Below are positions 14,701-23,700 of a stretch of DNA of 64,000 nucleotides, piece after piece (position 1 is the stretch's first letter; each line of letters starts with the position of its first letter). Made by a program: the position numbers. This DNA is from Escherichia coli (GTDB lineage Bacteria; Pseudomonadota; Gammaproteobacteria; Enterobacterales; Enterobacteriaceae): the NCBI RefSeq assembly GCF_050920415.1, contig NZ_CP169309.1. The stretch is one strand, 5' to 3'.

Positions 14701-17700
14701 AGTTCATTATCCCGCAGGAACGCAGTCGTTTGCTCCGCCAGACAAGGGCTGACCGCTGGATCCATGCATAAAATCGGATAGATTGCCAGCGTACGCTGGA
14801 GATCGGTGGGATCAATATCGACGGCTACCGGGACAGCCAACACCAGATTTTCTTTATTTATTAAGCGAGAGGCCAATAATTCTGTTACCGGCATACGAAC
14901 AAAACCAGCATGCAGTTCACCTTCCATCAACATCCTAGCTTGTACGCTGGAGGCAATTTGGCTGATAACAACGTCGCAGTCGGGAAATTTCTGGCGAAAA
15001 GTGTTAATCCAAACTGGTGTGCTTTTAAACGAAGATATACCAAATCCGAGCACCAGTTTACCCGTACTCCCCTTTTGGATTTCTCTGGCGTAGGTTAAAA
15101 AATCGTGGTGGGATTTCAGCAACTCATAAGCTTTAGCAAACAACTGCCTGCCAACCATCGTCAACACTGCCCCGTGGCGACCACGCAGGAAAAGCTGCCC
15201 TCCGGTCTTCTGTTCGAGCATCTTGATCTGCTTTGAAAGCGCAGGTTGTGTCAGAAATAAAGCTTCTGCAGCTTTATTGTAGTTTCCCTTTTCCGCCAGT
15301 GTCACAAATGCACGCAGCAGCCTTATATCTATTCCTGACATTTATTGAATCCTGAAAAATTGGAATTATACAAATACTCGCAACAGATGACATGATGCGT
15401 AAAATGATTTACGCCGAGATCCCCTTGGTTTGTCAAACTCAGAAACGCCATACCTGCTGCTCTTGGTTCTATTTAACACTCACTAATGCGCAGGTTATTT
15501 ATAAAAATTGACCTCATAAATCATTCAAAAACATTAATTATATAAATACAATAAGGATTAAATATTTATGCCAAATATTGCCGTTCTCACTAATGACCTG
15601 CAGTATGAGTTTACCTACAAAATAACACGCTCTCCAGAAATTCTGGCGCAAAAACTCGTCCAGTTTAATCAGTTTCTCGATGGCATTCGCGCTCTGGATC
15701 AATCCATTATCCACCTGCAACTTATCAACGATCCTAATGACCCGGCGGTACAAAAGCGCTATCGCAACCGCGAAGCGGGCATTCCTGCACTAGCTGGTCG
15801 CCCGGAAAACCAGATTATCGATAAAGTATACCGCCCCACAGATCTGGTTGTAGTCAAGGGCAGAGACAGCGGTTTTTTTAATAACGATCTCGACGAAATC
15901 CTCCAGCAACTCGGGGTAAAAACCGTAATCGTTACCGGGTTGCAAACTCATGTTTGCGTGCAGACCACTGCAGCGGATGCCTTCTTTCGCGGCTATAACG
16001 TCTGGGTACCGGGCGACTGCGTGTTCGCTCCTTCGTCCGAAGATACAGAGCGTGCACTCGAGTGGCTTGCCAGCTATTGCGCAACTGTAGCACCTTCTGC
16101 GGAAATTTTATCAATATTGCAAAAACAGAACGATCTGCCTGAGCGCGGCGAAAGGGAAGCATCATGAGCTTAACCCAGACGCTAAATCATGAAGAGGTCG
16201 TTGTACTGGATCATGGCACCGGGGCGAAATTAAGCCGCGAGTTGGTTGAAAAAATTGCTAGCATTCTCGGTGACACCTATCTGGGCGTGATGGAAGATAG
16301 CGCGGTGCTGGGGTTATCCACCAGGCGAATTGCCTTCACCACCGACTCCTTTGTTGCCACGCCGCTGATTTTCGGCAACGGTGATATTGGCAAAATCGCC
16401 GTATGCGGCACCGTTAACGATCTCGCTGTCAGTGGGGCTCGTCCCCTTTACATCACACTCAGTCTTATTATTGAGGAAGGTATGCCGATGGCTGATCTGG
16501 TCAGAATCATCGAGTCCGTACGTGAAACGGCTCGTGAGGCAGAGGTCAAGATTGTCGCTGGTGATACCAAGGTCGTAGGTAAAGGTGAAGCAGATCGGCT
16601 GTTTATCAATACTGCTGGCATCGGCGTGTTTGAACATCCGCCAGTCTCAGTTAAGAACGTGCGTCCGGGGCAGAAAATAATCCTGAGCGGATATATCGGC
16701 AATCACTCGATTCACCTGCTGTCGATGCGGGAAGGATTGGGGTTCGAGCGAAATATTCTTAGTGATTGCGCACCGCTGAACCACATTATTGACAAACTTA
16801 TCAGCAACATCCCTGAAGGCAAAATAGCGTCAATGCGAGACGTTACGCGCGGTGGGCTGTCCGCTGTTTTACACGAACATGCGCGCGCAACAAATTATCA
16901 GATTCATTTCGACCAGCCATCTTTGCCCATACAGCCGGAAACCGCCATGGCAGCTAATATGCTGGGTGTTGACGTCATTAATCTCGCTAATGAAGGTTGT
17001 TTGTGCCTGTTTGTTGAACCTGAGTATGCTCAGAAGGTACTACATTTGCTGCAGGAGCATCCTGTCGGCAAGCACGCGACAATTATCGGCGAGATCACCG
17101 CTGTCTCGGGTACTGAAGTCTATATGATTGAAGCTGATGGAACACACACAGAAGTCGAGGAATTATATGGCGCAGAATTACCCAGACTCTGTTGAGCTTC
17201 ACGAGACGCCGGAAACCCGGCGTTACCGCATCTGTGGGGTCGTTCAGGGCGTTGGATTTCGTCCCTTTGTTCACCGACTGGCCCGCACCTATGGTGCCAC
17301 CGGCTGGGTGTTAAACGATTCAGAAGGCGTGTTGCTTGAGCTGCAGGCATCCGGCACGGTTATTGCCAGAATCATGGACAAACTGGTGACCGAGGCACCA
17401 CCACTGGCAAAAATCATCAGTACGCAGGAAGTTAGCCCAACGGATACCAGAGCGCACTATGAAACGTTCAGCATCCGTAAAAGCCGCGATCATACCAGCA
17501 TGGACACGATTATCCCGCCAGATACCAACGTCTGCAGCGATTGCCTGCGCGAGATAAGCGATCCTGATAATCATCGTTATCGTTACGCTTTCACCAATTG
17601 CACCAATTGTGGGCCGCGCTATTCCATTATTCTTGGTATGCCTTACGATCGTGCCCAGAGCACTATGCGTAAATTCCCTTTATGTCCAACCTGTGAGCGT

Positions 17701-20700: not shown

Positions 20701-23700
20701 CTATTTGCGGCGGGCTCGATAGGCGGCCATCTTGTTGAACAATTTGGCTTTTTGACGCATATCTTTTTGATTAGTGCCGTGGCCTTAATACTGACGCTGA
20801 TTATCGCTCCGGCCATTTTTAAAGACATACAGACGGTTAAATCCACCAGCAGACAGACCACCCGGTTGCCTCGTTCTCCGGCGATTTATCTGATTGGATT
20901 GATGGCTTTTCTGGCCATGATCCCTGAATGCGCTGTTGTTGACTGGTCGTCACGCTATTTGATTAAAAATCTCAATGCAAAAACAGAAATCGCCAGCCTT
21001 GCCTTCGCCTGCTTTGCTGTAGCAATGGCCTTGTTTCGCTTTATGGGTGACGTGATCCGCAACCGCTTCGGCGCAATATTAATTATACGAATCTCCAGCT
21101 TACTGGCAGGCGCTAGCCTATTGTTGAGCGCACTGGCACACAATCCCTGGCAGGCGATCTGCGCATTTACCTTAGCGGGAATCGGCATCGCCAACCTTGT
21201 GCCCATTGTCTTTTCCGCAGCGGGAAATCAGCCCAATATTTCCACCAACACAGGAATGAGCATTGCCACAACCATTGGGTATTTAGGCACGCTAATGGCC
21301 CCTGCGCCTATTGGCTATATTGCGGAAATAACCGGTTTTCCAGTGGTTTATTGCGGACTAGCTTTCATGTCGGGAATTATCTTTTTGCTGGCACCACTGG
21401 TTCGGGGGGCAGAAATCTCTGTACAGCGGCAGCGAGCCTCAAACAAACACCAGAATACCGGAGCGTTGTAATTTCTGCCTGGCAAATACTGTGAAACGCT
21501 GACGCAAATTTTACTTTCCTGCGTATTGTCATCACAGGCCGTACAGACAGTGCGCGGTCTGTTGGCGGATCTGCCTGGTATTTTGCCGATGAACTGAGGG
21601 CGTCCTGCGGGATACGTATCGCCAGGGGCGTGAAACTAATTGATGAGGTGGCGGCATGATGCCGGCGGACTAGCATATCTGCCTTTCGCCGCCTGACATG
21701 TCCTTTGGGGCCGCTGTCAGTTCAGAGTAAAGGAGAAAAAGATCGATACCGAGGGGGGGCACGACGCCCCGGAGACACCCCTGTTTCGTCAGACAGTCTG
21801 TACCGCGTACAGCCTGAAACTCCCTAAACCTCAACAAACTGCCACTTCGACGTGAAGGTATCGTTCTGGCGCAGCCAAAAAGCACATGCCGGAGACTGTT
21901 TTTTTGGTTGTAGAGGGTAGTCATGAGCAAATTAAGTAGTGAAATGAAGGCCCTGACGAAGAAAGCAGGCGGCAGCTTCAAAACGGTAAATGACCGTATC
22001 CATATTACAAAACGGTTCAGTGAGCATTTACGCGAACTGAACATCCAGATCCGGCGGGTATGCGCCAAGACTGACTCTGGATTCTTTTCCGTTGAAACGA
22101 TATTTGAGATACCAGATGCGTGAACCGCCCGGATTGACGAGCAGATACAGACCGTGAGAGTCGGAGAGTTTTACCGGACGGGAAGAGGTTTTTAACTTGC
22201 GGATTTTAGAATCGTTTAAAGACATTTGGGGGTCACTCCAGAATCGAACCAAACTGACCCCAGATCTGACCACCAAATTATCCCGATGCGGAGAGAAAAC
22301 CAGATACGCACCGGGGAGGATTTTCACGCTAACTTACTGAACCGTAAACAAATAGAGATGTACAGATAAGCATGAAAACTTGAATTTGGCTCCTCTGACT
22401 GGACTCGAACCAGTGACATACGGATTAACAGTCCGCCGTTCTACCGACTGAACTACAGAGGAATCGTGTGAACAGGGCGCATGTTACTTAGCGGTACCTT
22501 GTCTGTCAACACTAAATTTCATAAGTCATTTCAATTGGTTAATTAATCTGCAAAGTTGTTAATTAATGAACATTCGTCGCCGAAAACGAGTCTGTATCAT
22601 TAGCGTGATGCAGTCTCTGCAAAGGATCTTGTTGATAAAATTGGCAGAAACGTTGCCACAATGAAGGGAAACGAGGAGCAAAAAGCTCAGGGGCGCTAAA
22701 GAAATATTCAGAAAGTACGGCAAAACACTCAGCAGGATCACTGGCAGCATAAGCATCGATGCTCGCCGCATTCTCACCGACTAATTCGATCTCTTCCTGA
22801 ATGTTGTTCATTGCGGCATGAAGATCGTGTTCCCAGCCAGCAACCTCACGCAACGGAATAAAGGGAACTCCGCTGGCGCGATCGCCGTTACGGGTGTCCA
22901 GCTTATGAGCGACTTCATGAATAATCAGGTTAAAACCAGAAGCATCAAACGAATCTTGTATATCCAACCAGTTCAAAACGATTGGCCCTTGCTGCCAGCT
23001 CTGACCTGACTGAACAATACGTTGGTTATGCACTAAACCGATATCGTCTTCCCACTCATCATCGACTACAAATGGCGCAGGGTAAATTAAGACTTCATGA
23101 AAACCATCCAGCCATTCTAGCCCTAACTCCAGAACGGGCAGGCAAAATAGAAGGGCTATCCGGCAGCTTCTTAATGAATCCAGCTCAAAGCCCTGTAAGG
23201 GAACAAGCCGTTTTTGCTGTAAAAAACGTTCGGCAAGAGTGACTAATTTGCTTTGTTCCTGTTCTGTCAGGCACGTTAAAAGGGGAATCGATAGTGCTTC
23301 CTGCCAGGGAAGGGCAGTTTGATGTGCTGATTCTTGTACTTTCCAGGGCCACTTAATCATCGTTTTGCTCGCAAACTCGTCACTTGAACAAAATTGCACG
23401 GACAGGGACTGTTAAAATGCCAAATTTCCTGGCATCATGGCAACCATCTGAACGGAGAGATGCCGGAGCGGCTGAACGGACCGGTCTCGAAAACCGGAGT
23501 AGGGGCAACTCTACCGGGGGTTCAAATCCCCCTCTCTCCGCCACTTTATCAATGACTTATCTCCCGACTTCCCGCCTTGCTTTTCCTAAACAGAACAATC
23601 GTAGAATATTCTTGAAGGGTTAGATCGTCACTGTTTTCTGTTCGATACTGTGACATTCAGCACTTGATTCGCTATGGATCAGACAGGAAGGTTTCGAGCG

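Follow-up and report, generated by a model that had tools for sequence, protein, structure and literature searches.

An island-borne HypE/HypF-like pair joined to a cysteine hydrolase in Escherichia coli: a candidate small-molecule pathway

HypE and HypF are best described from the maturation of [NiFe]-hydrogenases. The canonical HypE tail is PRIC, as given in PMC12130793, and the papers on the hyp genes of Frankia and Clostridium deal with canonical syntons. Orphan hypE and hypF accompanied by an ATP-grasp gene in a Streptomyces cluster are the subject of one remark in the decRiPPter paper (PMC7794033), and that cluster resembles a type met in our own survey (L083-type). Here we analyze a stretch of 64,000 nucleotides from Escherichia coli (contig NZ_CP169309.1, assembly GCF_050920415.1; hereafter the window), in which a HypE-like and a HypF-like protein are encoded in one operon with an isochorismatase-fold cysteine hydrolase (Iso), a phosphatase and a transporter. 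An original prediction, made from the sequence of the window, knew of no characterized function for such a cluster, and we likewise found no annotated or published pathway: the searchable full-text literature, with paywalled literature lying outside the search, holds no description of an Iso-HypE-HypF cassette or of its product.

We favor, at a probability of roughly 0.55, the reading that the region is a LysR-controlled operon that makes and exports a small metabolite and is not a spare hydrogenase-maturation set, with the unit of one carbon and one nitrogen (C1-N) formed by HypF and HypE being passed via Iso to a small molecule. A small-molecule pathway in place of [NiFe]-hydrogenase maturation had been the original proposal, and it finds support in a separate clade of HypE, in the kept motifs, and in the biosynthetic neighborhoods of related loci. 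Those of its stated refuting conditions that could be checked in silico all turned out in its favor.

The operon consists of five co-directional, overlapping genes at 15568-21471 on the (+) strand, encoding in order the hydrolase, the HypE-like and HypF-like proteins, a phosphatase of the haloacid dehalogenase (HAD) superfamily, and a transporter of the major facilitator superfamily (MFS). The features of the locus are as follows.

14463-15341, (-) strand: LysR-family transcriptional regulator, divergent from the operon (open reading frame [ORF]; NCBIfam LysR-family models)
15342-15567, no strand: AT-rich divergent intergenic region, presumed promoter/operator
15568-16167, (+) strand: isochorismatase-fold cysteine hydrolase, Iso (Pfam PF00857)
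16164-17195, (+) strand: HypE-like putative carbamoyl dehydratase/carrier, ending in PRLC (TIGR02124; AIRS and AIRS_C)
17167-19545, (+) strand: HypF-like putative carbamoyltransferase (TIGR00143; Pfam modules)
19538-20278, (+) strand: HAD-IA phosphatase of the beta-phosphoglucomutase family (NCBIfam TIGR02009/TIGR01509)
20278-21471, (+) strand: MFS transporter, presumed exporter (Pfam MFS_1)

The hydrolase stop and the HypE start share the ATGA at 16164-16167, HypF starts at the ATG at 17167 and overlaps HypE by 29 nt, HAD starts at the ATG at 19538 and overlaps HypF by 8 nt, and the HAD/MFS junction is the TAATG at 20276-20280. Gene order, coordinates, and overlapping junctions are all as first described, as is the divergent orientation of the LysR gene, and profile searches with Pfam and NCBIfam confirmed the domain assignment of each of the six proteins. 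The observation that no hydrogenase structural gene or other hyp gene is adjacent extends to the annotations of the whole 64 kb, among which there is none. Sigma-70-like matches occur on both strands of the divergent intergenic region (15524-15552, (+); 15393-15365, (-)) and are no commoner there than in shuffled sequence. The arrangement of the operon is not due to chance, since other Enterobacterales as well as Burkholderiales have the genes in the same order, at 54-95% protein identity. The divergent LysR protein is kept as well, at 50-89% identity in Enterobacterales loci and 33-35% in Burkholderiales loci, and its family cluster is represented in 22 compared loci. None of the five operon proteins has a match in PADLOC-DB v2, and an anti-phage defense reading of the E. 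coli locus, prompted by the metagenome locus L086 described below, was dropped on that result.

Judged by profile and architecture, the island proteins are real members of the HypE and HypF families, distinct from the pair that the host already has. The HypE-like protein scores 415 bits against the NCBIfam equivalog TIGR02124 (cut-off 251.6) and is made up of the PurM-like Pfam domains AIRS and AIRS_C. The HypF-like protein scores 788 bits against TIGR00143 (cut-off 466), and its Pfam modules (Acylphosphatase, two zf-HYPF, Sua5_yciO_yrdC, HypF_C, and HypF_C_2) amount to the full four-module carbamoyltransferase architecture that had been recognized in it from the outset. The PRLC ending read from the HypE sequence was also right: the C terminus is AELPRLC, with the terminal cysteine being Cys343, so that Pro, Arg, and Cys of the canonical tail are retained and Ile is replaced by Leu; the terminal Cys is kept in the cassette homologues. 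Each of the two proteins is 39% identical to its K-12 counterpart, and the closest solved relatives are HypE and HypF of Caldanaerobacter (3VTI, 3VTH), which are better matches than their E. coli counterparts HypE (2I6R) and HypF. The nearest homologues are 60-89% identical and belong to Enterobacter, Serratia, Brenneria, Lonsdalea, Burkholderia, Sorangium, Cystobacter, Streptomyces, and Lachnospiraceae.

In an alignment of 66 HypF sequences from such cassettes, HHHAH and the zinc-finger cysteines are 100% conserved, the acylphosphatase motif is mostly 92-98% conserved with one position at 48%, and the YrdC motif, DGxGxG, and the C-terminal NDGGISLGQ are also kept. Among the 74 HypE positions that are invariant within the clade described below, 58 are identical in K-12 HypE. 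The names hypE and hypF are also those given to the island genes by the Prokaryotic Genome Annotation Pipeline (PGAP). Of 5426 complete E. coli genomes, 5423 have canonical hypD-hypE and only 16 have the island (one of these copies being truncated), and therefore the island HypE and HypF are an additional pair.

The tail of HypE proved to be a useful marker. All but one of the 65 complete cassette-linked HypEs end in PRLC, as do 118 of the 120 closest database homologues, and PRIC is the ending of 128 of the best 150 50%-identity cluster representatives of the HypE family. In an all-against-library phmmer search, the query's own 50%-identity cluster scored 439 bits and the next cluster 323. 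When a neighbor-joining (NJ) tree was rooted on K-12 HypE, the 21 cassette HypEs sampled all belonged to one clade of 29 leaves, which holds no PRIC representative; its other members are one Lachnospiraceae sequence from a HypE/HypF-only locus, four PRLC representatives, two ending in PRLG or PRLR, and one truncated sequence. Midpoint rooting set the root inside the cassette clade, which is meaningless, and the K-12 HypE root was used instead, together with an unrooted bipartition bootstrap. The bipartition that separates 22 PRLC-clade HypEs (the 21 from cassettes and that of locus L011) from 126 PRIC representatives received 75 of 100 NJ bootstrap replicates, and the HypE-like protein is thus placed outside canonical HypE. 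One sister PRIC representative (P0186) lies on a contig of only 2 kb, and its context is uninformative.

The same three genes recur together well beyond E. coli. Scanning one genome per species with the Iso alignment alone retrieved 69 loci, of which 61 carry both HypE and HypF, directly beside Iso in nearly all and otherwise within about 5 kb; five further loci are cut by contig ends or fragmented, and three lack HypE and HypF (Gilliamella L017, L052, and L075). These counts were made by tblastn, as maps based on ORFs miscall genes in high-GC genomes, where shadow ORFs hide Iso in several Streptomyces loci. The cassette is found in Enterobacterales, Vibrionales, Alteromonadales, Burkholderiales, Alphaproteobacteria, Myxococcota, many Actinomycetota, Bacillota, and Chloroflexota, and a Bacteroidota contig from a metagenome-assembled genome (MAG; L074) carries HypF and Iso before the contig ends. 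It is also borne on plasmids: plasmid records of Citrobacter freundii and Salmonella, symbiotic plasmids of Paraburkholderia, Rhizobium pRLG203, and Streptomyces plasmids. Across 62 loci and the window, the pairwise distances of the three proteins Iso, HypE, and HypF correlate strongly with one another (Mantel r 0.85, 0.87, and 0.96, p = 0.001), as would be expected for a unit inherited together, with shared species phylogeny contributing too. The genomic link to hypC, hypD, or a [NiFe]-hydrogenase that belongs to the description of the HypE family is lacking in the window and in the flanks of about 80 related loci; no match to K-12 HypA, HypB, HypC, HypD, or HycE was found in those flanks as retrieved (at most 10 kb per side, those upstream in Paraburkholderia being short). 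By context and phylogeny, we judge that the island pair is not orthologous to the hydrogenase-maturation proteins.

The surroundings of the trio vary with the lineage. The Enterobacter cloacae locus has the trio with LysR and HAD genes and no MFS gene; that of Burkholderia has the trio with HAD, a SIS protein, an amidohydrolase, MFS, and a CN-hydrolase, with transposases and an integrase flanking. In Sorangium the trio directly follows a multi-module nonribosomal peptide synthetase (NRPS) and precedes an ATP-binding cassette (ABC) exporter and a glutathione S-transferase (GST), and in Streptomyces it lies within an NRPS cluster with serine hydroxymethyltransferase (SHMT), a glutamine-amidotransferase-like (Peptidase_C26/GATase) protein, and a 2-oxoglutarate (2OG) oxygenase. 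When the predicted proteins of 79 loci (window included) were clustered and the recurrent families annotated, the following neighbors emerged.

Diaminobutyrate-2-oxoglutarate transaminase, above the TIGR00709 cut-off: 16 loci
ATP-grasp amino-acid ligases, two families: 17 and 9 loci
NRPS modules: 14 loci (actinomycete-type family) and 4 (Sorangium)
DegT/PseC-type sugar aminotransferases: 8 loci
SHMT: 8 loci
EamA exporters: 9 loci
DoeB-like M20 deacylases: 6 loci

MFS transporters also recur among the neighbors, and an ABC importer-like set stands ahead of the cassette in Rhizobium pRLG203. The predicted functions make these contexts biosynthetic and export-oriented, and their commonest theme is an enzyme that would make a primary amine. 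The conservation of the neighborhood goes beyond what had been guessed from the window, with the trio embedded in NRPS, ATP-grasp, aminotransferase, and exporter clusters, and it is this portable three-gene cassette that appears as the conserved core, HAD and MFS being specific to the proteobacterial variant.

Several single loci deserve description in their own right. On the Streptomyces clavuligerus plasmid pF1D35B (L094, 7649-14886), HypF, HypE, and a DUF3865 protein form one divergent unit, and the other unit holds Iso with an arginase-family protein beside it, an ATP-grasp ligase, and an MFS transporter, an arrangement that hints at guanidino or ureido chemistry in this well-studied producer. 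Gilliamella sp. WF3-4 (L017, 9015-11428) has LysR, Iso (75% identical), and HAD (63%), with only about 150 bp between Iso and HAD and neither HypE nor HypF; either the two genes were deleted here or Iso and HAD are able to work without them. A contig of JGI metagenome 3300077760 (L086, 1407-6763) encodes a PRLC-type HypE, 42% identical to the window protein, without HypF. That HypE is preceded by an isochorismatase-family gene, an ARMT1-like (DUF89) phosphatase, and a TIR-domain protein of 780 amino acids, and the neighbors include further TIR, nSTAND, and AAA_35 genes, so that the locus resembles a defense island and may reflect a different use of the hydrolase-HypE pair. The 780-residue TIR protein was considered as a disguised HypF and ruled out (BLASTP E 0.27; Pfam finds only TIR_2). 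A Lachnospiraceae MAG (L011, 8312-13318) has a PRLC-clade HypE-HypF pair without Iso, the contig ending just past HypF; four small ORFs (68-156 amino acids, no Pfam match) precede the pair, and a glycosyltransferase/polysaccharide locus adjoins it. The C. freundii record pRHBSTW-00902_4 (L093, 82 kb) holds the full LysR-Iso-HypE-HypF-HAD-MFS cluster beside ndh, nagZ, thiK, lpoB, and hinT; termed a non-mobilizable plasmid, it is perhaps a chromid or a piece of chromosome wrongly assigned.

A direct comparison of the two types of HypE is offered by the plasmid pBPHY02 of Paraburkholderia phymatum (L089/L091, 3757-25618), which carries a complete hup/hypA-B-F-C-D-E cluster and, about 12 kb away, a separate cassette in the order ectB-GNAT-hypothetical-Iso-HypE-HypF. 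For the canonical HypE, which ends in PRIC, identity is 50% to K-12 HypE and 42% to the window protein; for that of the cassette, which ends in PRLC, the values are 41% and 63%, respectively. The presence of two complete pairs, one of each type, on one replicon argues for different jobs. A statement that the cassette is never found near hydrogenase genes had to be given up in view of this plasmid, whose hup/hyp cluster has its own HypE and HypF. In bean nodules studied by dual RNA sequencing, the cassette genes fall together in a nifA mutant, with log2 changes of -7.6 for ectB, -8.1 for GNAT, -6.3 for Iso, -5.2 for HypE, and -7.5 for HypF (PMC8305402). The same study reports that 2,4-diaminobutanoate and aspartate semialdehyde also fall in the mutant nodules, that both HypE/HypF pairs are NifA-dependent there, and lists the cassette genes as hydrogenase genes (PMC8305402).

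The partner that distinguishes the cassette is Iso. It belongs to Pfam PF00857 (Isochorismatase, E 3.6e-32), and the triad D10/K97/C130 and a second cysteine, C171, are invariant among five phylum-spanning homologues; the Iso proteins of Enterobacter, Burkholderia, Sorangium, and Streptomyces loci are 50-78% identical to that of the window. An AlphaFold2 model, built on an alignment of only five sequences, has a predicted local distance difference test (pLDDT) score of 85.6 and in Foldseek matches many isochorismatase-like members at probability 1.0 with TM-scores of 0.7-0.8. In a profile search of PDB sequences, a Thermoplasma protein related to N-carbamoylsarcosine amidase (CSHase; 3EEF) ranks first, followed by 3HB7, PncA, triuret hydrolase (TrtA), RutB, maleamate amidase, and biuret hydrolase (BiuH). 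The carbamoyl-amidase type assigned in the original prediction fits these nearest structures, which act on ureido or amide groups. Identity to any solved member of the fold is only 20-27%. Iso appears to be a subfamily of its own, as it falls below every named NCBIfam equivalog cut-off (RutB, 54 against 378 bits; BiuH, 51 against 370; PRK11440, 48 against 195; PncA, 29 against 174); the members of this subfamily are 38-95% identical among themselves and nearly always adjoin HypE.

In the relatives of Iso, the triad cysteine attacks the carbon of a terminal -C(O)NH2 or ureido group. Such substrates would be close in their chemistry to an S-carbamoyl or S-cyano cysteine on the tail of HypE and to an N-cyano or ureido product, and by this analogy Iso may act on a protein-bound thiocarbamate or thiocyanate or on an N-cyano or ureido metabolite. 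A role of Iso as supplier of carbamate to HypF was also considered; it seems unlikely given that HypF keeps its acylphosphatase (carbamoyl-phosphate) module.

The two remaining operon genes give some indication of what the acceptor might be. The HAD protein scores 67.6 bits against TIGR01509 (cut-off 29.4) and has the DxD nucleophile motif as DMDG at residues 14-17. Its best named NCBIfam matches are sugar phosphatases, the specific sugar-phosphatase equivalogs staying below cut-off, and its nearest solved structures are the phosphorylated-carbohydrate phosphatase TM1254, beta-phosphoglucomutase, and BT2127. The HAD gene is confined to the proteobacterial variant (11 loci, the window among them), where it follows HypF at 54-65% identity. 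The MFS protein matches Pfam MFS_1, with only weak matches to NCBIfam subfamilies; some relatives have its gene (57-64% identity; Citrobacter, Escherichia sp., and Lonsdalea, for example), and Enterobacter lacks it. In Burkholderia and Trinickia, the HAD gene is directly followed by genes for a protein consisting of the GlmS isomerase domain only (SIS), an MFS transporter, and a CN-hydrolase resembling nitrilase/N-carbamoylputrescine amidase (AguB). A phosphorylated amino sugar is favored as the candidate acceptor of the E. coli-type operon on account of the sugar-phosphatase-like HAD protein and of these GlmS-domain, MFS, and CN-hydrolase genes.

Placed in one scheme, these assignments lead to the following proposal, whose first two steps follow family knowledge. 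The HypF-like protein would convert carbamoyl phosphate to carbamoyl-AMP and carbamoylate Cys343 in the PRLC tail of the HypE-like protein, which would then dehydrate the S-carboxamide to an S-cyano group (thiocyanate) at the expense of ATP. It can further be hypothesized that Iso takes the place of the HypC-HypD iron scaffold by receiving or processing the HypE-bound C1-N unit and delivering it to a nucleophile, most probably a primary amine, and that the product would be an N-cyano compound or a derivative such as a guanidine, a cyclic isourea, or a ureido group. For the variant of Enterobacterales and Burkholderiales, the acceptor would probably be a phosphorylated primary metabolite, with an amino-sugar phosphate such as glucosamine 6-phosphate (GlcN-6-P) being the leading guess; the HAD protein would take off the phosphate, the MFS protein would export the product, and the divergent LysR protein would sense the inducer. 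More tentatively, and as a possibility to which we give considerably less weight, the cassette could be a general cyanating reagent, in which the CN of the HypE-bound thiocyanate goes to amines (diaminobutyrate, amino sugars, NRPS substrates) with Iso acting as a cyanotransferase or cyclase of this fold, yielding N-cyano, cyclic-guanidine, or amino-oxazoline products.

The proposal has to be weighed against readings that account for parts of the same evidence. Cyanogenesis or release of thiocyanate seems unlikely, in which Iso would discharge the S-cyano group of HypE to give HCN and a mixed disulfide, or SCN- or cyanate, for use as toxin, signal, or reagent; nor do we put more faith in a variant where the released cyanide adds spontaneously to aldehydes or imines from neighbor enzymes, as a second bacterial cyanide route besides HcnABC. 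Such release would agree with the retention of all catalytic features and the terminal Cys in HypE and HypF, with the two invariant cysteines C130 and C171 of Iso, with the nitrilase-superfamily enzyme in the Burkholderia and Trinickia loci, with the minimal Enterobacter operon, which has no obvious acceptor-forming enzyme, and with the GST adjoining the cassette in Sorangium clusters. GSTs are able to release HCN from organic thiocyanates. Free cyanide would, however, leave the HAD protein, the transporter, and the frequent aminotransferase and ATP-grasp partners unexplained, and each release would leave a disulfide to be reduced while no reductase is conserved; nor were cyanide-resistance genes seen in the annotation of the island. 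Less probable again is a pathway that stops at carbamoylation, with an S-carbamoyl intermediate or a ureido or carbamate end product and Iso as a trans-carbamoylase or editing amidase. The nearest relatives of Iso all act on carbamoyl, ureido, or amide groups, the Burkholderia variant has an N-carbamoylputrescine-amidase-like CN-hydrolase, and carbamoyl transfer is the chemistry of the HypF family; but elsewhere a single enzyme of the ornithine transcarbamoylase (OTC) or NodU/TobZ type suffices for this, with neither a carrier nor the ATP cost of HypE, and the HypE-like protein is always kept with its PurM-type domains and with the invariant positions that it shares with K-12 HypE.

A catabolic or detoxification island, importing and breaking down a carbamoyl or cyano xenobiotic or plant metabolite while HypE and HypF recycle the C1-N unit, is improbable in our estimate. 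The layout of LysR, hydrolase, and MFS is typical of catabolic islets, Gilliamella retains LysR-Iso-HAD without HypE and HypF, and the importer-like set on pRLG203 would suit uptake, but HypF and HypE catalyze an ATP-consuming synthesis and not a breakdown, and most contexts are biosynthetic (NRPS, ATP-grasp ligases, EamA or ABC-type exporters). The reading to which we assign the lowest probability is redundant or specialized hydrogenase maturation, in which the extra pair feeds cyanide to HypCD and Iso, HAD, and MFS are passengers. It would be consistent with profile scores well above the equivalog thresholds, with a bona fide HypE-HypF complex (Caldanaerobacter) as the best solved match, and with the gene names assigned by PGAP; against it stand the translationally coupled Iso-HypE-HypF linkage kept across several phyla and inside NRPS and ATP-grasp clusters, the lack of HypC, HypD, and hydrogenase genes in the retrieved flanks, the separate PRLC clade, and the complete canonical sets that E. 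coli and P. phymatum already hold. Some observations nevertheless weigh against the export of a small metabolite that we prefer. The proteins qualify as ordinary HypE and HypF on all sequence criteria and could still serve hydrogenase maturation, and in Paraburkholderia the cassette adjoins hup genes and shares their NifA regulation. The tree is an NJ tree with moderate support, and its PRIC representatives were set by their tail, their contexts being mostly unverified. The three genes are not strictly interdependent, since the Gilliamella loci L017, L052, and L075, the metagenome locus L086, and the Lachnospiraceae locus L011 uncouple them. The known members of the Iso fold are hydrolases and not transferases, which makes the proposed transfer role hypothetical; product and acceptor are guesses for every family member, and the idea of GlcN-6-P draws on accessory genes found in a single lineage (3 loci) and on a family assignment of the HAD protein that is generic.

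In the window, the LysR gene and the five-gene operon are the sole cargo of an 8.27-kb insert at tRNA-Asn, a horizontally acquired island with six intact genes between a yeeJ-type gene and tRNA-Asn/mtfA. Its borders are marked by these features.

14109-14134: distal direct repeat, a copy of the tRNA-Asn 3' end and left island border (26 nt, 92% identical to 22382-22407)
21923-22225: two pseudogene fragments of an integrase, left over from the N terminus of a P4-type enzyme (PGAP pseudogene annotation of an identical record)
22382-22407: proximal direct repeat, equal to the 3' end of tRNA-Asn
22387-22462, (-) strand: tRNA-Asn (GTT), integration site (ARAGORN)

The integrase fragments adjoin tRNA-Asn, and an ORF at 22028-22327 (-) begins MSLNDSKIRKL. 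In six listed genomes of other E. coli the site is empty, yeeJ passing directly into tRNA-Asn, so that a tRNA 3' end, direct repeats, integrase remnants, and absence from most E. coli, as expected of a tRNA-associated integrative island, are all present. The cluster region 14400-21600 is 100% identical to that of E. coli strain MFDS1022581. Directly adjoining the island is the yeeJ-type gene, which encodes an inverse autotransporter, a giant adhesin with Ig-like repeats (5707-13770, (-), ORF of 2687 amino acids); compared with most other E. coli, identity over the 5' end of this gene and the region upstream is only about 94%. Elsewhere in the window, an IS2 with a programmed-frameshift transposase (25742-26970) lies between zinT and msrQ. 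A non-core patch beside ompC (33090-36930), where the GC content dips to about 0.40-0.46, holds a transposase fragment, a degenerate IS5, and three hypothetical proteins, one of them of 458 amino acids (WP_000255419.1). The right end of the window, beyond ybcM, has an IS200/IS605 tnpA together with a divergent gene for the RNA-guided endonuclease TnpB (InsQ) (62659-63916).

Naming by annotation pipelines as hydrogenase maturases hides what appears to be a widespread biosynthetic cassette. Should the proposed pathway be correct, it would constitute a new enzymatic route to nitrile, cyanamide, guanidine, or ureido groups, and a PRLC-type HypE beside a cysteine hydrolase would serve as a genome-mining marker for dozens of uncharacterized clusters of the NRPS, ATP-grasp, and aminotransferase kinds. 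E. coli, Enterobacter, and Citrobacter have a compact version of four or five genes that would be experimentally tractable, and the question would arise as to what rare enteric strains and nodulating Paraburkholderia secrete. If the cassette were a general cyanating reagent, this would be the first enzymatic N-cyanation, with hydrogenase-maturation chemistry reused in secondary metabolism and reaching commensal and pathogenic Enterobacterales.

Comparison with known systems shows where the cassette would depart from them. With canonical HypF-HypE (E. coli; Caldanaerobacter 3VTI) the island pair has in common the families, the domain architecture, the C-terminal Pro-Arg-x-Cys, and presumably the half-reactions through carbamoyl-AMP, S-carbamoyl-Cys, and S-cyano-Cys; it differs in being only about 39% identical to the host's own pair, in ending in PRLC and not PRIC, and in being joined with Iso in small-molecule clusters. 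The acceptor is probably not the Fe of HypCD, because the cassette is unlinked to hypC, hypD, and hydrogenase genes. Iso has the fold and the Asp-Lys-Cys triad of isochorismatase-like hydrolases such as N-carbamoylsarcosine amidase, RutB, biuret and triuret hydrolases, maleamate amidase, and nicotinamidase, but is set apart from the named enzymes by its low identity, its scores below the equivalog cut-offs, and its place beside HypE. Flanking enzymes of the ectoine type (EctB/EctA), namely diaminobutyrate transaminase and GNAT acetyltransferases, are found in 16 loci; unlike the ectoine module, however, the loci examined contain no recognized EctC and have the trio and ATP-grasp ligases instead, and such enzymes are absent from the E. 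coli island.

The carbamoyltransferases of the NodU, TobZ, and GdmN type modify secondary metabolites with a group drawn from carbamoyl phosphate by way of a carbamoyl-adenylate, and have YrdC and Kae1 modules in common with HypF. They transfer the carbamoyl group directly to the metabolite, however, and lack the acylphosphatase, the zinc fingers, a HypE-type carrier, and a hydrolase partner. QueC and ToyM convert an acid to an amide and then to a nitrile in small-molecule biosynthesis at the expense of ATP, and resemble the reaction proposed for HypE in the dehydration of a carboxamide to a C-N triple bond, but they have the unrelated PP-loop ATPase fold and act on a free deazapurine and not on a protein-bound thiocarbamate, the carbon coming from the substrate and not from carbamoyl phosphate. 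The comparison suggests that what is new here would be the redeployment of known HypE/HypF chemistry with a new partner and toward new acceptors.

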